DNA of 64,000 nt, taken from contig FR880046.1 in assembly GCA_000435175.1 (NCBI GenBank), positions 47,271 to 111,270 of the forward strand, given 5' to 3'. The notes under the pieces were generated by a model that saw only the letters and a program-made list of their open reading frames with translations, made no database searches and was not told the origin of the DNA. The DNA comes from Clostridium sp. CAG:245. GTDB lineage: Bacteria; Bacillota; Clostridia; TANB77; CAG-508. Position 1 is the first letter of the stretch, and the number at the start of each line of letters is the position of its first letter. This document shows, piece by piece, positions 1,934-57,564 of the stretch. The position numbers were made by a program, and so were the translations under genes.

Positions 1934-2098
1934 AAAATAATTTAATATAGTTTTTACTAAAAATATAAAAATATGTAAAAATTAATTTTCTTTTTATGCA
2001 TAACTTTTTAAAAGACTAATATACATTAAATAAAGTTATTGTACAAACACATAACACATTTGAAATATACATTAGATGTATAAGGAGGTATAAAATTA

Positions 2099-3578
2099 AT
2101 GAAAGACAATAGGTTATATCAAGACATAGCAAAAAGGACAGATGGCGATATTTATGTTGGTGTTGTTGGACCTGTAAGAACTGGTAAATCGACTTTCATA
2201 AAAAGATTTATGGATTTGCTAGTAATTCCAAACATAGACAATGAGTATAAAAAAGAGCGTGCACAAGATGAGTTGCCTCAAAGTGCCGGTGGCAGAACAA
2301 TTATGACTACAGAGCCAAAGTTTATTCCAAATGAAGCGGTACGGAATTACTGTTGGTGATAATATAAAGCTGAACGTAAGACTGGTTGATTGTGTTGGAT
2401 ATTTGGTTAATAATGCTATTGGATATTTGGAAGATGATATGCCAAGAATGGTAAAAACACCATGGTCAACAGAGGAAATTCCATTTGAACAAGCAGCTGA
2501 GATTGGAACTAAAAAGGTAATTCAAGAACATTCTACAATTGGAATATTGGTTACAACTGATGGAAGTGTGACTGGAATAGAAAGAGAAGATTACATAGAA
2601 CCAGAGGAACGTGTTGTAAAGGAATTAAAAGAACTAAATAAACCTTTTGTAATAGTATTAAATTCGGTAGAACCAGATTCTGAATATACACAAACATTAG
2701 CTCAAAAACTTCAAGAAAAATACGATACACAGGTAATTCCAACAGATTGTGAAAATTTAACTGTAGATAAAATTGATGAAATATTTGGCAAAGTATTATA
2801 TGAATTTCCAATAGAGCGAGTAAACATCAGTTTCCCAAGATGGGTTGATGGACTACCAGAAACACATTGGCTAAAAGAAGAATTATATGACGAAATCAAA
2901 GATGCGTTTAAAGACATAAAAATTCTAAAACAGATAGACAACCGAATAACCAAATTGCAGAATACTGAGGTAATATCAACAAGTATAATAAACGAAATAC
3001 AGCTAGGAACAGGAAGCATAAACATAACCATCAACTTATTAGATGACTTATTCTATAAGGTATTAACCGAAATTTCTGGAGTTCCAATAACAAACGAAGG
3101 TGAACTATTCTCTAGCATGATATCATTTGCAAATGTAAAGAAGGAATATGACAAAGTATCTACAGCATTGCAAGAAGTAAACACAAAAGGTTATGGAATA
3201 GTAAGCCCATCAATAGACGAATTAATATTAGAAGAGCCTGAAATGGTAAAACAAGGCACACGCTATGGAGTAAAACTAAGAGCAAAAGCACCATCAATAC
3301 ACATGATAAGAGCAGACATAGAAACAGAAGTATCTCCAATAGTAGGAAGCGAAAAACAATCACAGGAACTGGTAGAATCGTTACTTTCAGAATTCGAAAA
3401 CGATCCAAAGAAAATATGGGAATCAAATATATTTGGCAAGAGCCTGCACGAGCTAGTAAACGAAGGCTTGCAAACAAAACTAATGAAAATGCCAGAAGAT
3501 GCACAAGAAAAATTACAAGAAACATTAGAAAGAATAATAAACGAGGGAAGCGGAGGACTAATCTGCATAATATTATAA
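2099..3578 (+). CDS. spoIVA: Stage IV sporulation protein A (SpoIVA ATPase), split into ORFs 2099..2359 and 2331..3578 by an apparent single-base insertion near 2338-2345
   Basis: N-terminal fragment has the Walker A motif (GVVGPVRTGKSTFIKRFMDL) and the ELPQSAGGRTIMTTEPKF motif. The second frame continues with NVRLVDCVGY...PRMVKTPW...EAAEIGTKKVIQEHSTIG. Together ~492 aa, as in SpoIVA. Confidence 0.85.
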
Positions 3579-9828: not shown

Positions 9829-9837
9829 GCATTTATA

Positions 9838-9946
9838 CAAACCAAATTCATTTTTTTAAACCTCGGCACATCGCTCTTGGTAGGAACCCCTTAGGACTTC
9901 TCAAAAGGCGAGTTTGACCTTGTTTATCAAAATGAAATTTGGTTTG
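9838..9946. other. Structured intergenic element, copy A: 17-bp stem (CAAACCAAATTCATTTT / AAAATGAAATTTGGTTTG) enclosing a conserved core CGCTCTTGGTA...AAAGGCGAGTTTGACCTTGTTT
   Basis: Long inverted repeat flanks a ~70-nt loop. The core matches the reverse complement of the element at 40223..40307, while the stem sequences differ. Candidate ncRNA or small mobile element. Confidence 0.5.
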
Positions 9947-9985
9947 ATAACGTTTATAGAAAAAATAATATGAAAGGGAAAGTGC

Positions 9986-10909: not shown

Positions 10910-10978
10910 CGAGAGATCTTTAAGATTTGCACAATTAAAAAAACTCTTATTGAGTGAAAAGAGTATAATGTAATTGTT

Positions 10979-11245: not shown

Positions 11246-12421
11246 ATGGAAGAAGAAAAAATGTATGTTCCCTCAGGATTAAAAACAAAAGATGGTAAAG
11301 ATATTATGTGCTATACTGGAGCTTTCTATTTAAAGAACAAAGAAAAAATAGAAAGAATGGTAAAAAAAGGCGAAGAAATATTAAGAGATGAGAATAAATT
11401 CTCTGAAAAACAACAAAAAGACAATAAGAATATAGTAAAAGAAGAAAATGAAAAGTATAAGACAAATGCTCAAATAAATAAAAAACATGACAAGTTATTT
11501 AAAGAAATACTGTCAGACAAGAAAGAAGCAGTTAATTTTATAAATCACTATTTAAATTTAAATCTACTAGAAGATGATATTGAAAAATATGAAAAAGAGT
11601 TTAGAACTGAAGAATTATATAATATAGAGGCTGATGTTGTATACAAAATAAAGAATAAAAATGTGTTTATACTAATAGAACATCAATCAAGTGTAGATTT
11701 AAAGATGTCATATAGGATATTGTCTTACAAAAATGCGATTGTAGATTCTGCAATAGACAGAAAAAGATTAAGAGAGAAAAGTTATAAAATTCCAAAAGTA
11801 ATAGCGATGGTATTATATACTGGGAAAAGACAATGGCATAAATTATCCATAAAAGACATCGAAGAGCAAATAGAAGGATATGAAGAAAATGCAGGAGAAT
11901 ATAACCTGATAGATGCAAATGAATTTAGCAGAGAAAAACTACTTGAAGATAATCTGATAACTTCTAAAGCTATGCTGATTGAAAAATCACAAAATAAAGA
12001 GGAATTATATAAAAATATAGAAGATGTAATAAATAATCAGAAGAAAAACGGAAATTTTGACAATTGGCAGTTGGAAAAATTAGTTCAATATGAACTTGCA
12101 GAAACAGAAGATAAAGAAATAATCAGTAAATTTATAGAAAAAATAAAAAATATAGGGAGGAATGATGAAATTATGACTAATGCTTCAAGAATAATTAATA
12201 GAGAAATAAGAAAGAGCAAAAAAGAAGGAATTGAAATTGGTTGGAATCAGGGAATTATAAGAGGAAAAGAAGAGGGAAAAATAGAGGGAAAGGTTGAAGG
12301 TAAAGCAGAAGGTAAAGCTGAAGGAATTGCTTTGGTGGCAAAGAGACTTAAAGGAAAAATGCATATAAAAGATATAAGCCAAATAACAGGGCTTAGTGAG
12401 AAAGAAATTAAACAATTGTAA
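11246..12421 (+). CDS. Rpn-family recombination-promoting nuclease / putative transposase (PD-(D/E)XK, YhgA-like)
   Basis: N-terminal HDKLFKEIL motif and nuclease core (VFILIEHQSSVD). C-terminal EGKIEGKVEGKAEGKAEGIALVA repeat and ...ISQITGLSEKEIKQL tail characteristic of Rpn/transposase_31 proteins. Confidence 0.8.
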   Translation: MEEEKMYVPSGLKTKDGKDIMCYTGAFYLKNKEKIERMVKKGEEILRDENKFSEKQQKDNKNIVKEENEKYKTNAQINKKHDKLFKEILSDKKEAVNFINHYLNLNLLEDDIEKYEKEFRTEELYNIEADVVYKIKNKNVFILIEHQSSVDLKMSYRILSYKNAIVDSAIDRKRLREKSYKIPKVIAMVLYTGKRQWHKLSIKDIEEQIEGYEENAGEYNLIDANEFSREKLLEDNLITSKAMLIEKSQNKEELYKNIEDVINNQKKNGNFDNWQLEKLVQYELAETEDKEIISKFIEKIKNIGRNDEIMTNASRIINREIRKSKKEGIEIGWNQGIIRGKEEGKIEGKVEGKAEGKAEGIALVAKRLKGKMHIKDISQITGLSEKEIKQL

Positions 12422-12463
12422 GAAAAATTATGAACATTAATGTGAAACTTTACATAAAACAAT

Positions 12464-12492
12464 AGACATCCCTCAAATTCTATGGTAAAATA
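12464..12492 (+). promoter_or_regulatory. Candidate promoter of the jet operon
   Basis: TAGACA, 17-nt spacer, TGgTAAAAT (extended -10), followed by a GGAGGG RBS and an ATG at 12518. Confidence 0.35.
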
Positions 12493-12517
12493 TAACAGTA
12501 GAAGAAATGGAGGGAAT

Positions 12518-13891
12518 ATGAATTTATTCGATAAAATACCGAAAAACTTTTTTTCAATACTAGTATCAAAAAATAAAAATTTATATATAGATGCTTTATT
12601 TGTATTAAGAGATGCTTTTAAGCAGGAAATGAGTATATCAAAAGAAAATATAATCTCAAGGCTGATAAATAGTTTAGAAGATGAGATTAATCAAGAAGAT
12701 TTTTCTGAAGATGAAAATGTGAGTGATTTAAAAGACAACAATATTACAGGTAAAGCATATTTTTTATTGAGAAAATTAGAATGGGCTGGTTGGATTGAAA
12801 GAGAAATGCAGAGAGACTCATTCGAGGAATTTATAATTTTACCAGATTATTCAATAAAGTTTATTAATTTATTGTATTCATTTACAGAAGAAAAGCAGGT
12901 CGAATATAACTCATATGTATTTGCTACATACACGGCTTTAAAGTTTGCAAGTACAGAGAAAAATGAAACATATAATGCGGTTATAACAGCTTATAATAAT
13001 ACAATTCAATTAATAGATGAACTAAAATCTGTATATAACAGTCTTGGAAGATTTCACAGAAAAATGTGTAATCAAGATGATGTTAATAATATAATAAGCC
13101 AACATTTTTTCGAGTATAAAGAATATAGTGATGAGATGATTTTTCCTAGATTTACTAGAGATTCTGTTCCGAGGTATAGGCTTCCAATTATAGAGTTATT
13201 AACGGAAATTTTAGCAGATGAAGAAAGACTACAGAATGCTATAAATGTGGCCTACAGTAGTAAGAGATACAAGACTAAAGAAGATGCTGAAAATGACATA
13301 TTAAATAAAATTAGAATAATTTCTGAAATATATGAGAATATTGGAACAACGATGAATGAGATTGAAACAAAAAATAATGACTATGTAAGAGCATCTGTTA
13401 AGAGAATACAATATTTACTGACTAATGATAAAGAATTGAAAGGTAAGTTAGTAAATATATTGAAAAATTCAAAAAATGAACAAGTAATTGACAAAATGAT
13501 AGACCAATTACAGTTATCAAGACAAGAATATTTGTCTAACGATTCTGTTTATATAAGAACGAAAAATATTAAAAAACAAGGAAAATCGATGCCAGTAAAA
13601 CAATCTAAACCGATAGATTCAAGAGCACTTTATGATTTTGCTAAGAGCTTGGAAAATATGTATAGTAATAAAACAATAAATGAGTTTATGGAGAAAAACT
13701 TTAAGAATAAACCATTTATTAGCTCAAGTGAAATTGAGTTAAATACAACAGAGGACTTAATTTTATTAATACTATCAACAATAAAGGCAGATAAATCAAG
13801 CAAGAGTTTTTATTACATAGAAGATAGTGATGAAACAATAAATAATAATGGATACTTAATTCCAAATATTAAGTTTATAAGGAGAAGTTAA
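12518..13891 (+). CDS. jetA: Wadjet system protein JetA (MksF/kleisin-like)
   Basis: ~457 aa, first gene of a 4-gene operon of ~460/214/1112/~400 aa. This is the canonical jetABCD order and sizes. Assignment is by operon context and size. The ORF track start at 12482 is less likely than the ATG after the GGAGGG RBS. Confidence 0.65.
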   Translation: MNLFDKIPKNFFSILVSKNKNLYIDALFVLRDAFKQEMSISKENIISRLINSLEDEINQEDFSEDENVSDLKDNNITGKAYFLLRKLEWAGWIEREMQRDSFEEFIILPDYSIKFINLLYSFTEEKQVEYNSYVFATYTALKFASTEKNETYNAVITAYNNTIQLIDELKSVYNSLGRFHRKMCNQDDVNNIISQHFFEYKEYSDEMIFPRFTRDSVPRYRLPIIELLTEILADEERLQNAINVAYSSKRYKTKEDAENDILNKIRIISEIYENIGTTMNEIETKNNDYVRASVKRIQYLLTNDKELKGKLVNILKNSKNEQVIDKMIDQLQLSRQEYLSNDSVYIRTKNIKKQGKSMPVKQSKPIDSRALYDFAKSLENMYSNKTINEFMEKNFKNKPFISSSEIELNTTEDLILLILSTIKADKSSKSFYYIEDSDETINNNGYLIPNIKFIRRS

Positions 13892-14536
13892 ATGTTCGAA
13901 GAAAAATATAATAATTTAACTGGAGCAGAAAAAGAAAATTTTAAAAGAATTACGAGTTTATTACTTAATAGAACTTTTATGGTAAATAGATTTTATGATA
14001 AAAATCAAGGCACTTTTAGGTCTAATAGTGATTACAGGTTTATTGATAGAAACATAGATTTATTTAGAGAATACCTTGAAATAGCTGGTTATAGGCTATT
14101 GAAAGACAGCAATTATGAAGTTATTTATATAGAAAACGAGTATGAATATAATAAAAAGAGATTAGATAAAAATACAACAATATTCTTATATGGATTAAGA
14201 CTGAAATTTGATGAGGATAGAGAAAGTGTAAAGTTAAATACTGATACCATTGTTAGTGTATCTGACATTATAAAAACTTTGATAGACGTTGGTGCATTTA
14301 ATAAAAAGCCTTCGGATATGGATATAAAGACGGCACTATCTAATCTAGCAAAATTTAATATTATTCAAAAAGTTGATGGAAAATTTGAAGATCCAGAAAC
14401 AAAAATAATAATCTTTCCATCAATATTATTTGCTGTAACAAACGAAAAAATTACAGCTTTGAGCCAAACAATATCAATTTTAGAAGAAAATGTAGAAGAT
14501 GACGAAAATGAAGAAGAGGAGGACTCTGAGGAATAA
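13892..14536 (+). CDS. jetB: Wadjet system protein JetB (MksE-like)
   Basis: 214 aa with an acidic C-terminal tail, translationally coupled between jetA and jetC (start overlaps the jetA stop; its stop overlaps the jetC start). Confidence 0.65.
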   Translation: MFEEKYNNLTGAEKENFKRITSLLLNRTFMVNRFYDKNQGTFRSNSDYRFIDRNIDLFREYLEIAGYRLLKDSNYEVIYIENEYEYNKKRLDKNTTIFLYGLRLKFDEDRESVKLNTDTIVSVSDIIKTLIDVGAFNKKPSDMDIKTALSNLAKFNIIQKVDGKFEDPETKIIIFPSILFAVTNEKITALSQTISILEENVEDDENEEEEDSEE

Positions 14537-17500
14537 TGAAGAAACTAGAAAGAATGTTATTGATAAATTGGCATTATATAAGTAAGGAAATGATTGAATT
14601 TTCAAATATTAATTTCTTGACTGGTAAAAACGGCTCTGGAAAGTCTACGATTATAGATGCTTTGCAACTTTTGCTATTGGGAGATACTAGAGGAAATTTC
14701 TTTAATAAGGCTGCAAATGATAGAACCGAAAGAACTCTTGAAGGCTATTTGAGAGGCGAAATTGGTGATGATGGGGATACGGGTTACAAGTATTTAAGAA
14801 GTGGAAAATTTTCTAGTTATATTGTTTGCGAATTTTATGATACGGTTACAAGAAAAAATTTCTGCATTGGAGTCGTATTTGACGTTTACAATGAGAGTGG
14901 CTTTGAACATAAATTTTTTATGTTTAATGGAAGTATTCCGGAAAATGAATTTATAGGAGAGAATAATATTCCGTTTTCATTTGCAGAATTGAAGAGCTTC
15001 TTGACTAGAAAATATGGTAATAAAAATTTAGAAATATGTACAAGTAATACTCAATACCAAGTGGCAGTAAGAGGAAAGCTCGGAGGATTAAATCAGAAGT
15101 TTTTTAATCTGTTTAAGAAGGCTGTAACTTTTACACCAATAAATGATATTGAAAAATTTATAGTAGAATATGTGTGTGATGTAAAAAATCAAATTGATAT
15201 AACTTCTATGCAGGAAAACATAAGACAATATAATAGTTTATTAAAACAAGTAGATGTAATGAATACTCAGAAAAATCAACTTCAAGAAATTGAAAATACA
15301 TATAATGGCTATCTTGACGAATGTATGAAACAAAGAGAAGCACAATATTTAATATGGAGAGCCGAAAAACAGCAATTAATTGATGAATATGAAAATCTAC
15401 AAAAGCAAGTCCAAGATGATAAAGATGGCAAAGTAAGCTTAGAGGAAACAACGACACAACTTGAAAAAACAAAGGGCGAGATTGAAAAAGAAATATCAGA
15501 TTTAACAGTAACAAGAGCAAATTCTGATATTAAAATAAAGAGTGATAAGATTACTGCCAAAATACAAGAAATAGATAGTAAGCTTAATAACATTAGTGAA
15601 AAGGCAAGCAAAAACATTGCAACTCTAAGAAATTATACATTAAGATGGAATGCAAGCATTTCTAAACTAGAAAGTGCAAAAGACAAAGTAAATTATCAAA
15701 ATATAAATAATACTAGAGATTTAATAAAGTACATAGATAGTATAAATGAAAATATTTTTAATGAATTAGACATAAATGCAATAACAGAAACGAGAAACAA
15801 TATATCAGATTTAATAAATTGGGGAACGAGTACTTATTTTGATAAAAAGTATGAAATAGACAATAAGAAACAGACTAGAGAAGTTCTAATTCAAGATATA
15901 GAAAAATTAAAGAATGGAATTAATCCATATGATTCACAATTTATAAATTTTAAAGCTATGTTGGAGGCAAGACTAAAAGAAAAGTTTTGTAAAGACATAG
16001 AGGTATCAATTTTAGCAGATTTATTAGAAATAAAAGATGCAAGATGGCAGAATGCAATCGAAGGTTACTTAAATACGCAGAAAAAATATTTAATAATAGA
16101 CCCACAATATTTTGAAGAAGCTTCAAAAATATATAGAGAACTTGCACGAGAAAACGAAAAAATACATTCATTTGGTATAGTTGATATTGAAAAAATTAGA
16201 AAAGACAATGCATCAAATGCACTTGAAAATAGTCTTGCAACAGAAGTAATTACTGAAAATGAATTGGCAAGAACATATGTTGATTACCTATTAGGAAGAG
16301 TAATTAAATGTGAAACAATAGAAGAGTTAAGAAGCCATAAACAAGCTATAACATCAGATTGCATGTTGTACCAAGGATATGTGCTTAGAAAAATAGATCC
16401 TAAATTCTATAAATATCCGGTTATAGGTAAGAAAGCATTAGAACAACAAAAACAAATAAAAGAAAATGAGCTTGCTAAATTGGAAGATGATATAAATAAT
16501 TTTGAAACTGTTATAAATGCAGTGGATAGTATTAGAAAAATGGCTAACTTTGGAGAAGAATTTTTACCAGGCTTAGAAGAAGACATTATCGAAGCAAAGA
16601 AAAAATCTGAATATGATGAAGAAAAACAGAAATTACAACAAGAATTAGACAGTATGGATTTATTCTGGTTAAATACAATTTCTGAAAAGATAAAAGAAAA
16701 AGAAGTAGAAAAAACAAAAATAGAACAGCAAATAAAGGATAATAGTTTAAAATTAGGAATACTAAGTGAAGCAATAAAGAATATAGAGGAAGAAAGGCTT
16801 CCTAGAATAAGCTTATCAATAGAAGAAAAGACTAACAAAATTAATGACTTTTATGATGTTGAATGGCAACAAAATGTTGGTGAACAGAAGTATGATATAC
16901 AATCATTAAAGAAAACTGCAGAGAGAATAGCAGAGTCATATTCTAATATCATAAAAGGAATAATAAAAAGAAAAGACCAATTGCATGCAGAACTTATAGA
17001 CAAGAGAAGTGATTTTAATACGAAATACCAATATGCATATAACATTCAAGATGCAAGCAATGAGGAATTTTCTAAACACTTGAAAAAATTAGAAGAAGTG
17101 GTATTACCAGAATATACAGAAAAAATAAAAGATTCAAGACAGAAAGCATATGAGCAATTTAGAATAGAATTTTTAGACAAGCTAAAATCTAACATTGATG
17201 AGGTAAAGAAACAAATAAAAGAACTAAACAGTGCACTGGGAGAACACAGATTTGGAACAGATTCATACAGCTTCAAAGTATCTCCAAAGCAAGAGTATAA
17301 AAGATTTTATGATATGCTTCAAGACGACTTATTACTAGGAGACTGGGCTATAGGACAGGAACAGTTTAACCAGAAATATTCTCAAGAGATAAAAGAATTA
17401 TTTGAAAAAATAACTACAACAGATGTGAATAATAATTCGATTTCAAGTGAGGAGTATGAGAAAAACATCAAAGAATATACCGATTATAGAACATATTTGA

Positions 17501-17874
17501 ACTTTGATTTAATAGTAAAAGATAAACTTGGAAACGAGCAACGTTTATCTAAGACATTATTGAAAAAGTCTGGTGGAGAAACGCAGACACCATTCTATAT
17601 ATCAATATTGGCATCATTTGCACAATTATATAGAACTAAGAGTAATGATAATACCATAAGATTAATTGTATTTGATGAGGCGTTCAGCAAAATGGATAGC
17701 GAGAGAATAGAAGAAAGTATTAAGCTCTTAAAGAAGATACAATTTCAAGCAATATTTGCTGCACCACCAGAAAAATTGCAAGATATTCAAGCACTAGTTG
17801 ATTCAACATTACTAGTATTAAATCCGGAAGAACATGAGATTGTTGTGAAGAAGTATACTAATAAGGAAGAATAA
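14536..17874 (+). CDS. jetC: Wadjet system SMC-like ATPase JetC (MksB/MukB-like)
   Basis: 1112 aa. N-terminal LINWHYISKEMIEF...LTGKNGSGKSTIIDALQLLLLG (MukB-like NW motif plus Walker A). Long central coiled coil. C-terminal LSGGETQ signature and Walker B LIVFDEAFSKMD. Confidence 0.85.
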   Translation: MKKLERMLLINWHYISKEMIEFSNINFLTGKNGSGKSTIIDALQLLLLGDTRGNFFNKAANDRTERTLEGYLRGEIGDDGDTGYKYLRSGKFSSYIVCEFYDTVTRKNFCIGVVFDVYNESGFEHKFFMFNGSIPENEFIGENNIPFSFAELKSFLTRKYGNKNLEICTSNTQYQVAVRGKLGGLNQKFFNLFKKAVTFTPINDIEKFIVEYVCDVKNQIDITSMQENIRQYNSLLKQVDVMNTQKNQLQEIENTYNGYLDECMKQREAQYLIWRAEKQQLIDEYENLQKQVQDDKDGKVSLEETTTQLEKTKGEIEKEISDLTVTRANSDIKIKSDKITAKIQEIDSKLNNISEKASKNIATLRNYTLRWNASISKLESAKDKVNYQNINNTRDLIKYIDSINENIFNELDINAITETRNNISDLINWGTSTYFDKKYEIDNKKQTREVLIQDIEKLKNGINPYDSQFINFKAMLEARLKEKFCKDIEVSILADLLEIKDARWQNAIEGYLNTQKKYLIIDPQYFEEASKIYRELARENEKIHSFGIVDIEKIRKDNASNALENSLATEVITENELARTYVDYLLGRVIKCETIEELRSHKQAITSDCMLYQGYVLRKIDPKFYKYPVIGKKALEQQKQIKENELAKLEDDINNFETVINAVDSIRKMANFGEEFLPGLEEDIIEAKKKSEYDEEKQKLQQELDSMDLFWLNTISEKIKEKEVEKTKIEQQIKDNSLKLGILSEAIKNIEEERLPRISLSIEEKTNKINDFYDVEWQQNVGEQKYDIQSLKKTAERIAESYSNIIKGIIKRKDQLHAELIDKRSDFNTKYQYAYNIQDASNEEFSKHLKKLEEVVLPEYTEKIKDSRQKAYEQFRIEFLDKLKSNIDEVKKQIKELNSALGEHRFGTDSYSFKVSPKQEYKRFYDMLQDDLLLGDWAIGQEQFNQKYSQEIKELFEKITTTDVNNNSISSEEYEKNIKEYTDYRTYLNFDLIVKDKLGNEQRLSKTLLKKSGGETQTPFYISILASFAQLYRTKSNDNTIRLIVFDEAFSKMDSERIEESIKLLKKIQFQAIFAAPPEKLQDIQALVDSTLLVLNPEEHEIVVKKYTNKEE

Positions 17875-17884
17875 TTATTTTCCA

Positions 17885-19109
17885 ATGCAATTTGAAGAGA
17901 AGGAATATAGAATGGATTTTGAGAAGATTATTTTAAATACATTGTTAGATAAATACGAGGCTAGCAAGGCTTTATATGAAACTTCTAATAGAAGAATCAT
18001 ATTAAAAATGAAGAATCTAACTGGTTATAATATTGAAAATTATGATAGAAAACAGATAATTCATGATGTGATATTTGAGTTAAAAAAAGAAGGCATAATA
18101 GATTTTTCTTGGCAAAAATACGAGAAGCGGAAACATAATAGAAGAAATTTGGTTAAATAAAGAAAATGTGGAATGGGCATATGAAAAGGCTAATAGAACA
18201 AATGTAAAAGAAAATATTGAGCTATTATTGAAAATACTAGAAGAAGCGGAATTTAATCAAGAGTGGATAAATGAGTACAAACAAAACATGATAAATTATT
18301 TGAAAGAAAAGCATAAAACAAATAATTTGTTTCCTGTTCAATTTGCACAAGATATTTTGCTGGTGTTAAAACAGATTGATAACAAAGAAGAAAATTTAAA
18401 ACGTGTATTAAGTATAAAATGCTTTGGAGATTCTAAATATTTTGAGAGAAATATAGAACACATTCTAATAAGAATTATTAAAACATATTTGCTTGAAAAG
18501 GCAGAAGAATATAGTAATGATGATATCTTATTAGAAGTAGGAATATCAAAATATCCCGAAATCTTTGAATTTTGTGGAGACATGGAATATTACATAGACG
18601 ATGAAAAAATAGAGTACAAAAAAGAAACTATGGGAAGCTATTTGAATAGTTATAATGTAGAAAAAATGACAAATTTGACAATTAAGAATGCAAGAAAAAT
18701 ATTATTCATAGAAAATAAAGCTAACTATATAGATTATATTCAAAACAAGCAAGAAAGTGATGAATTTGTAATATATCATGGTGGAATGTATAGTCCACTA
18801 AAAGGTAAATTCTTTAAAAAAATATATGAAGCCTGCGAAAACCAAGAATTTTATCATTGGAGTGACATAGATATTGGTGGATTTAGAATATTTACGAGAC
18901 TTAAAAAAATTATACCAGAACTACAAGAATATAAAATGGATACAGAAGCATTTTTAGCTAAAAAAGAATATTGGAAAGAAATGAATCAAGACTATAGAAA
19001 AAGGCTACAACAATTAAGAGGATCGGCAGAGTATGAGACTTTTTATGAAGTGATTGACGCAATGTTAGAGAACAATAGCAAATTAGAACAAGAAGCATTT
19101 ATATTATAA
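17885..19109 (+). CDS. jetD: Wadjet system Toprim nuclease JetD (MksG-like), split into ORFs 17885..18160 and 18168..19109 by an apparent frameshift
   Basis: C-terminal part has Toprim/DUF2220 motifs (ILFIENKANY; YHWSDIDIGGFRIF). The 91-aa upstream ORF in another frame supplies the missing N-terminal domain (91+313 aa, about 400 aa like JetD). The second ORF starts with GTG. Confidence 0.75.
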
Positions 19110-19357
19110 ATTAGGTAAAGGTCAAGCCTCATAAATAGGTAACTATTAAATACATTTGATAAAATGGAAAAATATTACAATATTTCAAACCGAAGCATTG
19201 ACAAAATGAATAAAAATGATATATAATGAATATACTAAAGAAGCAATTGAAAGATTGCTGATAGGAGTTCATAAAGAACGATTTGAAATTAGGTAAAGTT
19301 CAAGCCTCATAAATGAACTGTAATGAAATTAGGTAATGCTTAAGCCTTATAAATAAG
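19109..19357. repeat. Three copies of a ~31-nt repeat AATTAGGTAAaGnTCAAGCCTcATAAATa (19109..19139, 19287..19317, 19327..19357); the last two are tandem with a 40-nt period
   Basis: Read directly. Copy 1 abuts the jetD stop. Copies 2 and 3 lie downstream of a TTGACA-17-TATAAT promoter (19198..19226), in the leader of a 30-codon ORF and yebC. Confidence 0.55.
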
Positions 19358-19552
19358 CAGTGATAAAATAGGGAGTATATAAGTGGTAACACATGTACTC
19401 TCTTATTTTGTGCAGAAAAGAGGTTAGATGAAAGAATTATTTAAAATTTTAATAAAATACTACCCAAATGGCAAAATTTGTGGTAAAATAAAAAATGTAA
19501 TTTTTACGAGAAATAAATAATGGCTAAAAGCCAATAAGAAGGAGGAGTTAAA

Positions 19553-20410: not shown

Positions 20411-21299
20411 ATGAAAGAAGAGTTTCTAAAATATTTTCCTCAACATATACAAGCAATATTGAATGAAGAAGATTTAAATTCGAATGAAGAAATTCGTATA
20501 AGAAATAATTTGCCCTTAATTTTAAGATTTGGACAAGCCCAGAAAATACTAAATTACATTATAAATACAGAAGATATTAATTATATATTTCAAAAAATAT
20601 GCGAAAATTCCGTATACTCATATCAAAAACAAATTGCAAATGGCTACATAACAATAAAAGGCGGACATCGTGTTGGAATAGTTGGAACAGCAGTGTTAGA
20701 TGCAAATGGACAAGTTGCTAATTTTAATTATATTTCTAGTTTAAATTTTAGAATAAGCAGGGAAATAAAAGGTTGTTCAAACTGTATGATAAATGAAATA
20801 ATAAAAAACAATAATAGCATCTATAATACGTTATTGATCTCTCCACCAGGAATGCGGCAAGACGACATTGTTGCGTGATATAACACGAAATATTAGTAAT
20901 GGAATATCAGATAAAATACAGGGCTTGAATGTGGTTGTAATAGATGAGAGAGGAGAAATTTCATCAATTTATAGAGGAATAATGCAAAATGATTTAGGAA
21001 TTAGGACTGATGTGATAAATGATATTCCAAAATCTATTGGAATGAAAATTGCTATTCGTTCTATGGCACCACAAGTGTTAATAGCAGATGAAATCGGAAG
21101 TGTGCAAGATAGTGAAGTAATAAAGTACGCCGTGTGCTGTGGTGTAAAAGGAATTTTTACGGCTCATGGAAATAGTATTGAAGATGTGATGAAAAATCCA
21201 GAGTTGAAGGAATTGATACAAGAAAAAATATTTGAAAAAGTAATAGTTATAAAAGCAAGAAATGATTCGAATTATGAATTTGAAACAACAAATTTATAA
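20411..21299 (+). CDS. spoIIIAA: Stage III sporulation protein AA (SpoIIIAA ATPase), split at the Walker A motif by an apparent 1-nt insertion (ORFs 20411..20878 and 20868..21299)
   Basis: Sequence ccaggaAtgcggcaagacgacattgttgcgtgat. Removing one A restores PGCGKTTLLRDITRN, the canonical SpoIIIAA P-loop. Downstream VVVIDERGEI and the FTAHGNS motif fit SpoIIIAA. Confidence 0.85.
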
Positions 21300-28226: not shown

Positions 28227-28780
28227 TGGGAATTATTAATGTTTATACAGGACCAATGAAATGCGGCAAAAGTCAGAAGATATTTAATGAATTAAAGAGA
28301 CAATTAATTGCAGGAAAGAACATTAAGGTATTTAAACCATTATTAGACAATAGAGCAGGAGATGCAGTAATATCAACAAGAGCAGGCAATTCAATAAATG
28401 CTATAAATATTCAGAGCATAAATGAGCTTGAAAAATATGATGCAGATTCATATTTTATTGATGAATTTCAATTTTTAAAAGGAGATATTCAAACAATAGA
28501 TAAAATGGCTGCAGAAGGAAAAAAATTTTATATAGCTGGATTAAATTTAACATCAGAAAAGAAAACATTTGGTAAAATGGGAGATTTAATGTGTATTGCT
28601 GATAATATTGAGATGATGACTTCTATATGTGAAATTTGTAAGAGCGAAGAAGCTATATTTACATATTATAAAGGACAAAAAGACACAGACATTATGGTTG
28701 GAGACGCAGAATATATACCTGTTTGTAGAGAATGCTATAATAAACTGATGAAACATATGCCATTTGAAATCGCCCAATAG
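28227..28780 (+). CDS. tdk: Thymidine kinase
   Basis: P-loop GPMKCGKS and a C-terminal zinc ribbon (CEICKSE...CRECY). Start chosen at the ATG after the GGAGG RBS rather than the upstream ORF-track start. Confidence 0.85.
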
Positions 28781-28800
28781 GGACGCCCCTTTTTGGGCGA
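28771..28800 (+). repeat. GC-rich palindromic hairpin element, copy 1 (CGCCCAATAGGGACGCCCCTTTTTGGGCGA); supplies the tdk stop codon
   Basis: 7-10-bp stem (t)CGCCCAA/TTGGGCG(a) around a 15-nt loop. The TAG of tdk lies inside the element (...IAQ*). Confidence 0.7.
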
Positions 28801-28971
28801 GTAAAATAAAAAACAATTTTAATTTTACAAAAATTTCGATACGTAGCTCTTGTTCGGATTTCATCTGGATTTTTCAAAAAACAAACTTGAACTTATTTCT
28901 AAAAATTAGATTTTTTTATATAATTGTGTGACCAATTTAAAAATTTACCGTTTATATATATGGAGGATGTA

Positions 28972-29605: not shown

Positions 29606-30877
29606 ATGGAAGAAAAGGCACAATTTGGAATTGGATTTGTGTCAGGCAGACCGAATGTTTGCGCTGTTATAAACAACACATATAAGCATTTATTAAATCA
29701 AACTAAAAAGTTTGATAGAGAGGTTGAGTTAACGATATTCATATTGTATGATTTAAGTTACCAAAAAGAATCTAGAGAAGAAGATTTTTATAAAATATTA
29801 CCAGAGGTACATAAAGATATAAAAATTGTTCATATTACTCCCCAATTAATAGAGGAGCAAAAATCAGGATTAGTTAAAGAGAAAATAATAACTATGGACG
29901 AAGCCAATTTATTCTTCGGCTATGGCTATGCAAAAGCAAGGAATACACTGCTATATAATGCGGTAATTAATGGAATTGATTATTTTTTATACTGGGATGA
30001 TGACGAATACCCAGTAGCATGTATTAAGAATAATACGAACGAAAACATTAAATGGAAGGCACAAAATAATATATTAGGGCATTTGGAGAACATAGAAAAT
30101 GCTGATATTACTTTCGGACATAGATGCGGATATAATTCGCCACTTCCATATATGGAATTAAAAAATCCATTTCATGAGCGTAGAATAAAGTCTTTTATAG
30201 AGGCTGTAAAAAATGAATTTATGACGTGGAAAGATGTTAAAGAATATTTGTCAAAAAATGATGGAATTGCCTATGCTGATGAAGAATTAATGAAAAAGAA
30301 AACTGTGAGTGAAATACAAATCCAAGGAACGCATAAACGTATATTGGGATCTCCATTGTGCCTAAACTTGAAACATTTAGAAAAAATTCCGGCATTTTAT
30401 AATCCGGAAGGGGCAAGAGGAGAAGATGCATTCTTTTCTTTGTTATTGAATGAAAACAAAGTGGTAAGTGTACCGGTTTATCATTTTCATGACCCATTTA
30501 TAAAATTTAATAATGTTTTAGAAGGAAAGTATCCAAGGAAAATAGATAAAACAAAATCTAACGATAAAAGCGTTGAACAGAGATTTTATAAGGTGGCTAG
30601 AGGCTGGATTAAATACAGACCTTTATATTTGTATGCAACTAATAGAGAAAATTATGAAAAAGAAATAAAGAAAACAGTAAAAAATTTAAAGAGAGGCATT
30701 CCAGCAATGAATAAAATGTTTAAAGATAAAGACTTTAACATTTTATTGGAAGACCTAGAAAAATATAATTCAAATGTAAAACAAGATTATGAAGATTTTC
30801 AACATGTACAAGTTGTTTGGAAAAAGTTGAAAAAAACAATTACTGAAAATAATAAAAAACTTGTAATCGCCCAATAG
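29606..30877 (+). CDS. Hypothetical protein, possible GT-A-like glycosyltransferase (YWDDDEY motif)
   Basis: 423-aa ORF immediately upstream of a GT8 glycosyltransferase. C-terminal ...LVIAQ* and stop come from hairpin element copy 2. Confidence 0.45.
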   Translation: MEEKAQFGIGFVSGRPNVCAVINNTYKHLLNQTKKFDREVELTIFILYDLSYQKESREEDFYKILPEVHKDIKIVHITPQLIEEQKSGLVKEKIITMDEANLFFGYGYAKARNTLLYNAVINGIDYFLYWDDDEYPVACIKNNTNENIKWKAQNNILGHLENIENADITFGHRCGYNSPLPYMELKNPFHERRIKSFIEAVKNEFMTWKDVKEYLSKNDGIAYADEELMKKKTVSEIQIQGTHKRILGSPLCLNLKHLEKIPAFYNPEGARGEDAFFSLLLNENKVVSVPVYHFHDPFIKFNNVLEGKYPRKIDKTKSNDKSVEQRFYKVARGWIKYRPLYLYATNRENYEKEIKKTVKNLKRGIPAMNKMFKDKDFNILLEDLEKYNSNVKQDYEDFQHVQVVWKKLKKTITENNKKLVIAQ

Positions 30878-30897
30878 GGACGCCCCTTTTTGGGCGA
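30868..30897 (+). repeat. GC-rich palindromic hairpin element, copy 2; supplies the stop codon of the 29606..30877 gene
   Basis: Identical 30-mer CGCCCAATAGGGACGCCCCTTTTTGGGCGA. The TAG at 30875..30877 is inside it. Confidence 0.7.
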
Positions 30898-30911
30898 AAA
30901 GAGGAGAGAAT

Positions 30912-37810: not shown

Positions 37811-37840
37811 TCGCCCCCAAAGGGGCGTCCCTAATGGGCA
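37811..37840 (-). repeat. GC-rich palindromic hairpin element, copy 3 (reverse orientation, slightly diverged)
   Basis: TCGCCCCCAAAGGGGCGTCCCTAATGGGCA is the reverse complement of the consensus with 3 differences. Sits between the kinase-like gene and murD. Confidence 0.6.
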
Positions 37841-37863
37841 AAAAACTAAAAAGGAGTTTAAGT

Positions 37864-39372: not shown

Positions 39373-39657
39373 ATGTTAAATACTGATGAGTATATGAAAA
39401 CTATAATTGGAGATACATATACAAGAAGTGAGATAAACATAAAAGAGCCAACTTTACAGACGGTAGATTTATATCCAGAGTCATACTTAAAAATTAATCC
39501 GATAGTTATAAATAAATGCAAAAAAATTACACAAAAACCAACAAAAACTTTAATTAATCAAATTACAGATGAAATTCTTGAAGAATTAAATGAAAAAAAT
39601 ACCAAAGATGACATAAAAAGGGCGTTTATTCAAACTTTAGTATTAAATCAACTTTAA
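39373..39657 (+). CDS. Hypothetical small protein
   Basis: 94-aa ORF with a strong RBS (GGGAGG) 7 nt upstream. No recognisable family. Confidence 0.4.
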   Translation: MLNTDEYMKTIIGDTYTRSEINIKEPTLQTVDLYPESYLKINPIVINKCKKITQKPTKTLINQITDEILEELNEKNTKDDIKRAFIQTLVLNQL

Positions 39658-39754
39658 AAGAAAATTTTGCCAAATCAGCAAAATTCAAACTGTATATTCA
39701 ATTTTCAAATGTGCATAATAATATTGTAAATTTTTTTGAAAGGTGGATATATAA

Positions 39755-40192: not shown

Positions 40193-40222
40193 CAAAAAAT
40201 ATAGATAAATAACATTAAAGCA

Positions 40223-40307
40223 AAAATACATCTTATTTTGAAAAACAAGGTCAAGCTCGCCTTTTACCAAGAGCGCCGTACCGAAGTTAAAAAAATAAGA
40301 TGTATTT
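40223..40307. other. Structured intergenic element, copy B: perfect 16-bp stem AAATACATCTTATTTT enclosing a core homologous (as reverse complement) to the element at 9838..9946
   Basis: The loop reverse complement reads CGGTACGGCGCTCTTGGTAAAAGGCGAGCTTGACCTTGTTTTTC. Copy A reads CGGCACATCGCTCTTGGTA[21-nt insert]AAAGGCGAGTTTGACCTTGTTTATC. Confidence 0.5.
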
Positions 40308-40398
40308 CTGCCTTTAAAAGATTAAAATAATTTTATAGTAACGTATACTTTTTGAAAATTACCATAAAATAGTAATATATTATTTATTAGGAGCTATT

Positions 40399-53329: not shown

Positions 53330-53335
53330 AAATTT

Positions 53336-53365
53336 CGCCCAATAGGGACGCCCCTTTTTGGGCGG
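53336..53365 (+). repeat. GC-rich palindromic hairpin element, copy 4
   Basis: CGCCCAATAGGGACGCCCCTTTTTGGGCGG, followed by a T7 run. Confidence 0.7.
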
Positions 53366-53396
53366 AATTTTTTTAAAAAAATAATTAACAAGTTTT

Positions 53397-53426
53397 CGCC
53401 CCCAAAAGGAGCGTCCCTATTGGGCG
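53397..53426 (-). repeat. GC-rich palindromic hairpin element, copy 5 (reverse orientation), forming an inverted pair with copy 4 around a 31-bp AT-rich spacer
   Basis: CGCCCCCAAAAGGAGCGTCCCTATTGGGCG is the reverse complement of the consensus. Directly followed by the AGGAGG RBS of the MBOAT gene. Confidence 0.65.
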
Positions 53427-53438
53427 AAAGGAGGAAAC

Positions 53439-57002: not shown

Positions 57003-57543
57003 TAAAAAAAGATGCAAGTGGTGCAATATGAAGAATTCACTATATATAAAATATCATGATGAGGAATGGTGCAAACCGAACTTTGATGAGAAATATTTAT
57101 ATGAGATGCTTATATTAGAGTCTTTTCAAGCTGGACTTTCTTGGGAGTGTGTACTAAATAAAAGACAAGCCTTTGAGATGGCTTATGATAACTTTAACAT
57201 AGAAAAAGTATGCCAATATGATGATGAAAAAGTCATAGAACTGCAACAAAATAAAAAGATAATTAGAAATAAATTAAAGATAAAAGCAAGCATAAACAAT
57301 TCTAAAATATTTAAGAATATACAAAAAGAATTTGGCTCGTTCAATAACTATTTAAAGACTTTCACAGATGGCAAAACATACTATGAAATAGATAAGACAA
57401 CATCTCCAATTTCTGATGCTATCTCAAAAAACCTACAAAAAAGAGGAATGAAATTTGTAGGTTCAACAATAATATATTCATATTTACAGGCAATAGGAGT
57501 GATTATATCTCATGATAAAGATTGTTTTCTTTTCGCCCAATAG
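56995..57543 (+). CDS. tag: DNA-3-methyladenine glycosylase I
   Basis: YHDEEWCKP, LILESFQAGLSW and IIRNKLKIKASINNSK motifs. Stop codon donated by hairpin element copy 6. Confidence 0.9.
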   Translation: MDNKKRCKWCNMKNSLYIKYHDEEWCKPNFDEKYLYEMLILESFQAGLSWECVLNKRQAFEMAYDNFNIEKVCQYDDEKVIELQQNKKIIRNKLKIKASINNSKIFKNIQKEFGSFNNYLKTFTDGKTYYEIDKTTSPISDAISKNLQKRGMKFVGSTIIYSYLQAIGVIISHDKDCFLFAQ

Positions 57544-57564
57544 GGACGCCCCTTTTTGGTCGAT
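57535..57564 (+). repeat. GC-rich palindromic hairpin element, copy 6; supplies the tag stop codon
   Basis: CGCCCAATAGGGACGCCCCTTTTTGGTCGA (one mismatch in the 3' arm). The TAG at 57541..57543 is inside it (...LFAQ*). Confidence 0.65.

Follow-up and report, generated by a model that had tools for sequence, protein, structure and literature searches.

Correia (NEMIS) elements of Neisseria are small palindromic MITEs that lie beside genes and are co-transcribed, their inverted ends forming a long hairpin. These ends are conserved 26-bp terminal inverted repeats, accompanied by a TA duplication and an IHF site. ERIC is reportedly a ~127-bp imperfect palindrome that is co-transcribed and has a conserved central inverted repeat. 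Integron attC sites are recognised as a folded single strand. What is conserved in this strand is its structure, not its sequence; some bases are extrahelical and the terminal structure is variable. Among elements discussed under the MITE definition (PMC3184786), RU-1 is listed as MITE-like (PMC2759123, PMC3184786). In the Bacillus cereus group, the ~155-bp bcr1 repeat has a non-conserved distribution between strains, compensatory base-pair changes and short flanking direct repeats, and the SPRITE of a Firmicute is a dispersed, terminator-like hairpin repeat of ~105 nt (both PMC3184786). REP/BIME and REPIN-RAYT sequences are intergenic palindromes enriched at gene 3′ ends, where they can stabilise the upstream mRNA (PMC3184786, PMC2817692).

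The window, by which we mean the whole 64,000-nt stretch of DNA analysed, carries two hairpins in opposite orientation that hold a GC-rich core within differing outer stems (copies A and B; Table 1), as the initial annotation had noticed. A third, degenerate copy had been overlooked, and more loci were found in metagenomes. We hold it moderately probable that these sequences form one family of small, non-coding, palindromic, MITE-like intergenic repeats, of the ERIC/bcr1/SPRITE/Correia manner, in a clade of gut Clostridia. The sequence family is new and previously uncatalogued, but as a repeat it belongs to a known kind; it is neither a new category nor a classical strand-specific RNA gene. 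The repeat is limited to one clade of gut Clostridia, which are uncultured, AT-rich and spore-forming.

Table 1 Repeat copies and empty sites in the window. Helix coordinates within copy A were counted by hand from the sequence; L numbers denote fetched loci.
Feature	Position	Strand	Basis or remark
Copy A, whole hairpin element	9838..9946	+	covariance-model match 9836-9948, 119.8 bits, E 7e-24
Copy A, outer stem P1, 5′ arm	9838..9854	+	pairs with 9929-9946
Copy A, outer stem P1, 3′ arm, one bulged T	9929..9946	+	fold
Copy A, conserved GC-rich core	9865..9919	+	family alignments and pair counts
Copy A, P2	9865-9869 with 9916-9919	+	core helix
Copy A, P3, GCTC/GAGT	9873-9876 with 9910-9913	+	core helix
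Copy A, internal loop, TTGGTA / TCAAAAGGC	9877-9882 / 9901-9909	+	core
Copy A, apical hairpin P4	9883-9900	+	core
Third copy, decayed	28807..28921	+	covariance-model match 67.6 bits
Copy B, family core with apical hairpin deleted (GCTC TTGGTAAAAGGC GAGC)	40220..40311	-	covariance-model match 80.9 bits
Empty site	21290..21292	.	subfamily-2 element in L002 (6518-6634)
Empty site	30877..30908	.	full element in L003, L010, L012, L074, L099; window has small GC-rich repeat
Empty site, stop codon of ORF 39373-39657	39652..39659	.	filled in L133, L063, L048, L066
Empty site	53380..53426	.	full element in L009; window has inverted copy of small GC-rich repeat
Second repeat, window copies	28770-28801, 30867-30898, 37822-37841(-), 53335-53365, 53408-53427(-), 57533-57563		

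Architecture and covariation of the hairpin

The outer stems are as first described: CAAACCAAATTCATTTT pairs with AAAATGAAATTTGGTTTG over 17 bp in copy A, and the minus-strand copy B has AAATACATCTTATTTT paired with AAAATAAGATGTATTT (40223-40307) in a perfect 16-bp stem that can be extended to 23 bp. The core common to both copies comprises two blocks, each present exactly twice in the window, once per copy, where shuffles expect 0. Both copies fold far better than dinucleotide shuffles (RNA z -4.4 to -7.5; DNA z -3.5 and -4.7). Two details of the initial annotation needed revision. Its "21-nt insertion in copy A" has the polarity reversed, the 21-22 nt being the apical hairpin of nearly every member; copy B has suffered a deletion, since its orthologues L014, L043, L063 and L108 keep this hairpin. 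Its "direct half-site repeat" (GCGCTCTTGGTA / GCGAGYTTGACC) is a by-product of GCTC:GAGC pairing in helix P3, because GCTC and GGT on one side face their complements GAGC and ACC on the other, and the similarity is gone in other subfamilies (e.g. GTGCTTGGTC / GCACTTCCAG). A role of the half-sites in protein binding was rejected on this absence and on their spacing, which differs by 21 nt between copies A and B.

Every copy forms one long irregular hairpin, composed of the outer stem P1, a short A/T helix, P2, P3, an asymmetric internal loop and P4. P1 spans 16-28 bp, is AT-rich and differs at each locus. P2 reads GGU-A-C/GACC in subfamily 1 and AAC-A-YG/CRGUU in subfamily 2, with an identical bulged A in both, and P3 reads GCUC/GAGC, with the variants GUGC/GCAC, GCCC/GGGC and GUUC/GAAC. 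The conserved internal loop has UUGGUC on its 5′ side and UCAAA(A/G)GGC, also written UCAAA(A)GGC, on its 3′ side. P4 caps the structure as an apical hairpin (GGRGCUCC-loop-GGACYCC) of variable sequence and loop. Mild decay is visible in copy A, where P2 contains a C.A mismatch and the apical stem is weakened.

Pairing across 60 copies reaches 93.2% of cells, compared with 83.7% in shuffles (0 of 500 shuffles reach 93.2%), and double-sided changes occupy 106 cells versus 35.5 in shuffles. When the partner is slid by one to three columns, pairing falls to ≤59%. In P3, 98.8% of cells are paired and three of the four base pairs covary, with CG replaced by UA in 10 copies and UA by GC in 9. The covarying flanking stems proposed for copies A and B thus extend to the whole family: the inner helices covary, and a 5′ arm of P1 finds its best partner in its own 3′ arm in 44 of 68 copies, with a duplex energy of -16.4 ± 5.6 kcal/mol for own partners versus -5.8 ± 2.9 kcal/mol for foreign ones. 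Otherwise the P1 arms share only a loose subfamily consensus, the conserved part being central, and one orthologous pair carries a compensated P1 change (CCAATT...AATTGG vs CCGATT...AATCGG). Outer stems that are copy-specific yet always complementary suggest that intrastrand pairing, as an RNA hairpin, a single-stranded DNA hairpin or a cruciform, is what would be maintained. Such pairing may be under selection, or one arm may be rewritten from the other by template switching during replication, a process that can create and repair hairpins in one step (PMC8794818).

Several other features were considered for the core and set aside. RNAalifold proposes a helix CGC(U)CUU/AAGGCG, which is 97.8% paired with zero double-sided change; we preferred P3 because GYNC/GNRC covaries. 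An H-type pseudoknot (GCTC:GAGC crossing GGTC:GACC), suggested by the two window copies, was dropped because subfamily 2 has CCRGT in place of GACC, paired with the upstream AACAYG. An IHF-like site in the 5′ half was dropped as well, being compatible with no more than a few copies of subfamily 2.

Distribution, insertion and inversion of the family

A genome scan with the two-block pattern, covering one genome per species, located 12 loci in 4 uncultured Clostridia gut MAGs, together with four chance matches in GC-rich coding DNA. With a looser pattern (internal loop and apical stem), a metagenome scan found at least 120 loci; the matches listed lie on AT-rich contigs except for ~8 GC-rich chance matches, and many records carry the label human gut metagenome. 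An nhmmer profile run on all fetched loci gave 143 matches, 96 of them distinct, which correspond to ~67 loci among the matches listed, every one on AT-rich human-gut Clostridia contigs. The covariance model also picked up diverged subfamily copies in these loci. The element, a repeat of ~115 bases, measures 92-175 nt (~110-130 nt, up to ~175 nt with extensions), below the ~400 bp expected of a MITE, and is dispersed, with three copies in 64 kb and ~67 loci among the matches listed. It is non-coding, since its indels are not multiples of three. Conservation of the core is partly an ascertainment effect of fishing copies with core patterns; by eye, ~10 "by-catch" copies comprise ~6 with an intact loop, 3 that are decaying and 1 with a deletion.

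No known RNA family accounts for the element: Rfam 15 gave no match over the whole window at gathering thresholds, and the matches at E up to 10 around copies A and B (snoRNA, plastid and miRNA) were all spurious. No member of the family was found in viral contigs, plasmids or phages, and a literature search by sequence strings matched primers only. The host organism is known from metagenomes alone. Copy A is identical in four other metagenome assemblies, and the MYG1 protein beside it occurs in 167 index blocks. Relatives with 86-90% identical YebC had no copy in ~60 kb, taken as 20-kb samples, which indicates that abundance of the repeat is lineage-restricted.

Presence and absence of the element between close relatives is seen at the four empty window sites and in the comparison of L076/L110 with L084. 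L084 carries a clean 147-nt insertion with its own outer stem. On either side stands an 8-bp direct repeat with 7 of 8 positions identical (CAAAATAA/CTAAATAA); the stop codon is part of this repeat, so the reading frame keeps its end. The inserted unit is thus the whole element, outer stem included. Two origins of the stem in host sequence, as a pre-existing terminator or as an inverted copy of the target, were rejected on this insertion and on the nearby paralogues L007 2278 and 5158, which share stems. The target-site duplication that the initial annotation suggested looking for is clear at this one insertion only. At the stop codon of ORF 39373-39657, flanks of the filled L133 are 98% identical to the empty window and only TAAAA is repeated; L108 is empty there too. 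Several of the other filled and empty comparisons are replacements of the whole spacer rather than clean insertions, and in three of these a 31-nt GC-rich repeat is the alternative occupant. Of the two identities first offered for the structure, a miniature mobile element is borne out by multiple copies, presence and absence in close relatives and one clean insertion. A functional ncRNA is not, given the lack of an Rfam match, of promoter room and of strand bias, and the occurrence of both orientations.

The 31-nt repeat forms a second family in its own right, a GC-rich hairpin (TCGCCCAATAGGGACGCCCCTTTTTGGGCGA) found six times in the window, where 0 copies are expected. In three of the four plus-strand copies the upstream ORF ends inside the repeat, whose first bases provide its final codons and stop codon (...ATC/TTC GCC CAA TAG). 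Often the repeat lies beside the long hairpin, or one takes the place of the other at a site (window 30877 and 53380; L037 vs L001). Possibly there is a third family as well: in a separate set of gut contigs (L018, L023, L124 and L030) the long hairpin is nested in a further palindrome, GGGGACGGAG(A)nTGTACA ... TGTACA(T)nCTCCGTCCCC. Around positions 1835-2030 of L123, two cores stand in tandem ~110 nt apart, the second without its own 5′ arm, possibly by partial duplication.

At four loci, a reverse-complemented core stands between flanks that are collinear and 93-98% identical. The window and L012 differ in this way from L003 and L010, with unmoved arms; L053 vs L086 and L001 vs L037 are clean flips of everything between the arms. 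In L081 vs the L021 group the whole hairpin is flipped with its arms, between flanks 96-98% identical. Both orientations of a segment between inverted repeats were seen between assemblies, not within one population. The normal final k-mers of metagenome assemblers are longer than the perfect arms. Because of this, and because each state recurs in several independent assemblies, an assembly artefact is an unlikely source of the flips. Separately, in each of L033, L038, L088 and L093 the contig changes locus within the element, whose 5′ half and flank come from one locus and whose 3′ half and flank come from a different one. These joins may be either assembly chimeras from the identical core or real recombination between copies.

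The copy that is flipped in the window (28807-28921) relative to the intact orthologues in L003 and L010 has also decayed. Its 60-nt core carries ~17 changes, nearly all G/C to A/T and most of them common to L012, and the hairpin is lost (DNA fold z +0.44). Among 16 locus pairs of the same orientation, divergence is 11.2% in the flanks, which are mostly coding DNA, and 5.4% in the element, the element being lower in 15 of the 16 pairs (p = 0.0003). Retained copies thus change about half as fast as their flanks, and unconstrained copies decay quickly to the A/T background. The lower divergence of the element, together with the loss of G/C and of the fold in the third copy, indicates that intact copies are maintained.

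We found no gene that would mobilise the element. Neither split nor autonomous versions of it, nor any recurrent transposase, recombinase, integrase, HUH gene or invertase, were seen in ~1 Mb of loci, and no autonomous insertion sequence with the same ends was found in these loci or in plasmids, phages and viral contigs. The sole "putative transposase" family near the loci is Rpn/Transposase_31, represented in the window by the gene at 11246-12421; it lies near only 4 loci, about as expected by chance on a rough estimate, and was rejected as a partner. Directly downstream of this Rpn/YhgA-like gene, the window holds a Wadjet defence operon (JetA, JetB/DUF4194, JetC, JetD; 12482-19109). It belongs to a strain-variable island: L002, elsewhere 93-95% identical to the window, lacks the whole ~7 kb from 12423 to 19442. 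L002 has in turn ~1 kb between its MYG1 and Rpn-like genes (2095-3080) that is absent from the window (10911-10965).

Gene context and strand preference

Copy A begins 10 nt 3′ of a HlyIII-family gene (stop 9828) and lies 40 nt 5′ of a MYG1-family gene, sense to both, and copy B lies 28 nt past the stop (40192) of a CBS-domain gene, antisense to the flanking genes. All genes of the window are on one strand, and its three copies are oriented +, + and -. Among 62 loci with both neighbours callable, 35 copies are in tandem sense, 17 in tandem antisense, 9 between convergent and 1 between divergent genes, and a gene 3′ end adjoins the element in 61. The median gap from stop codon to element is 10 nt for sense and 31 nt for antisense copies. 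The excess of sense over antisense copies is modest, about 2:1 (p = 0.018). With insertion at or just past the stop codon in either orientation, the element is, judged by position, almost certainly co-transcribed with the gene it follows. A start at a median of 10 nt past the upstream stop codon leaves no room for a promoter, and no promoter consensus common to the subfamilies was found. An outward promoter read from TTGACC was rejected for its wrong spacing and for the lack of the motif in subfamily 2.

The fold itself favours neither strand. Mean minimum free energies are -38.4 kcal/mol in the reference orientation and -40.3 kcal/mol on the opposite strand. In the covarying helices we counted 16 G-U versus 33 A-C combinations, or 16 versus 20 after hand subtraction of the misaligned pair 36-97. 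Covariation is Watson-Crick only with no favoured strand, as expected of a DNA palindrome or of a hairpin used on both strands, not of a one-strand RNA. A strand-specific RNA should show G-U above A-C and either a fixed orientation to its neighbouring genes or a promoter of its own, none of which was seen in the family. The predicted hairpin of ~45-50 bp can form on whichever strand is read.

A consensus terminator scan gave 0 terminator-like sites at copies A and B, and no other canonical terminator in their spacers. A T-run (at least 6 of 7 T) near the stem end is present in 15 of 66 copies, versus a background of 4.5%. The combination that marks an intrinsic terminator, a short GC-rich stem with a loop of 3-8 nt and a U-tract, was not found at copies A and B.

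Explanations and relation to known repeats

In the MITE-like reading that we favour, the GC-rich core and its asymmetric internal loop would be recognised by a putative trans-acting protein that moves, copies or uses the element. The effect on the cell, if any, would be that of a 3′-end hairpin, in the formation or protection of transcript ends, rather than that of a sequence-specific regulatory RNA. Several observations sit uneasily with this reading. No autonomous partner or transposase appears in ~1 Mb of loci; the terminal inverted repeats vary between copies, the opposite of a transposase-recognised MITE end; and the target-site duplication is clear at one insertion, several comparisons being spacer replacements. 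The 2:1 sense excess (p = 0.018) hints at a directional constraint beyond the model, and core conservation is inflated by the core patterns used to fish the copies.

Placement of the element suggests a different and rather unlikely account, in which the copies are domesticated (bidirectional) transcription terminators or 3′-end stabilisers that spread or persist by selection for function and not selfishly, the host needing a strong GC-containing stem behind its genes in a ~30% GC genome. This would explain why a gene 3′ end adjoins the element in 61 of 62 loci, ~10 nt past the stop codon, with a hairpin that works on both strands, is more conserved than its flanks and has its place taken at three loci by a small GC-rich hairpin repeat of another kind; in addition, no other canonical terminator was found in the spacers that contain copies A and B. 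Yet a T-run follows the stem in only 15 of 66 copies (background 4.5%), copies A and B fail the terminator scan, and the GC-rich part sits ~20 bp from the stem base, unlike in intrinsic terminators. Moreover, close relatives have empty sites without any hairpin inside apparent operons, and termination needs no conserved asymmetric internal loop. That loop, flanked by covarying helices, would instead suit a strand-specific structured RNA, either a 3′-UTR cis element or a processed small RNA, whose internal loop binds a protein and whose antisense copies are non-functional by-products of flipping. The sense excess (35 vs 17, p = 0.018) and the shorter distance of sense copies to the stop codon point the same way, as does the alternative helix CGC(U)CUU/AAGGCG, kept only via U-G wobbles that are legal solely in sense-strand RNA. 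We nevertheless find a strand-specific RNA quite improbable, given that one third of the tandem copies are antisense and intact, that the covarying helices show no more G-U than A-C, and that the fold of the antisense strand is a little more stable. It also lacks a conserved promoter and any Rfam match even at E up to 10, and otherwise maintained copies have lost the apical hairpin and part of the loop (copy B; L007 5158).

Were the DNA itself the folded species, the element could be a structure-recognised single-stranded hairpin site for a recombinase, in the manner of attC, IS200/IS605 or Xer, or a small invertible switch (a "mini-inverton"). Watson-Crick-only covariation, conserved bulges and asymmetric loop, a variable terminal loop, stems that vary freely with structure kept, and core flips between inverted arms at four loci with flanks 93-98% identical are compatible with such a site. 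We regard it as very doubtful and the least probable of the readings considered, since no recombinase, integrase or HUH gene recurs nearby, the copies are dispersed rather than arrayed as cassettes, and their ends show no R-box-like conservation. Orientation is mixed in the window (+, +, -) though all genes are on one strand, and ordinary recombination or template switching between inverted arms of 16-28 bp can produce flips. It is also unlikely that the family represents a distinct hairpin-borne class, in which the centre is recognised by a structure-specific enzyme or is a directional transcription signal, and the arms serve as substrate for frequent inversion in place. If it did, the element would be an orientation-switchable 3′-end module behind stop codons, phase-variable at the population level, in a niche that would alternatively be filled by the small GC-rich repeat found across stop codons.

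For abundant but uncultured human-gut Clostridia, a clade without genetics, the work provides a well-defined repeat family whose structure is supported by covariance. Repeats of this type break metagenome assemblies, and apparently chimeric contigs were met at the element. Such repeats are markers of strain-level variation as well, and through them the 3′ ends of many transcripts can be altered together. A conserved centre with free stems, placement at stop codons, recurrent flips and fast GC-to-AT decay make the family a natural system in which to ask whether compensatory changes in palindromes arise from hairpin selection or from replication template switching (PMC8794818). Its interest is moderate and lies in the inside-out conservation, the stop-codon placement and the recurrent flipping; it opens no new field.

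In attC sites the outer R/L boxes are conserved, the centre is variable and the cassettes are arrayed beside intI; here the conservation pattern is reversed, and copies are single, dispersed and behind housekeeping genes. REPs are GC-rich sequences of 20-40 nt with a conserved 5′ tetranucleotide and a dedicated RAYT transposase. The element described here is three times longer and does not fit them in size or sequence, and no RAYT or other recurrent transposase-like gene was seen near the loci; the more REP-like object in the window is the second, 31-nt GC-rich repeat. With respect to Correia elements, the arrangement is likewise inverted, the ends varying and the centre being conserved. Most copies lack the canonical U-tract and GC-rich stem base of the SPRITE, to which the sequence is unrelated.

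Parallels are also found in ERIC/IRU (RU-1) of enterobacteria and in bcr1. Like the element, ERIC is an extragenic imperfect palindrome that occurs in either orientation near stop codons and is present or absent between relatives, although it shares no sequence similarity, belongs to another host phylum and uses a TA target not seen here; copy-specific outer stems and in-place core flips are found in our family. In bcr1, which is transcribed and likewise without sequence similarity, a 5-bp duplication is consistent, whereas our 8-bp duplication is clear at one site. Despite these differences, bcr1 resembles the element in being a strain-variable repeat of Firmicutes in which a double-stranded structure is kept by compensatory changes.
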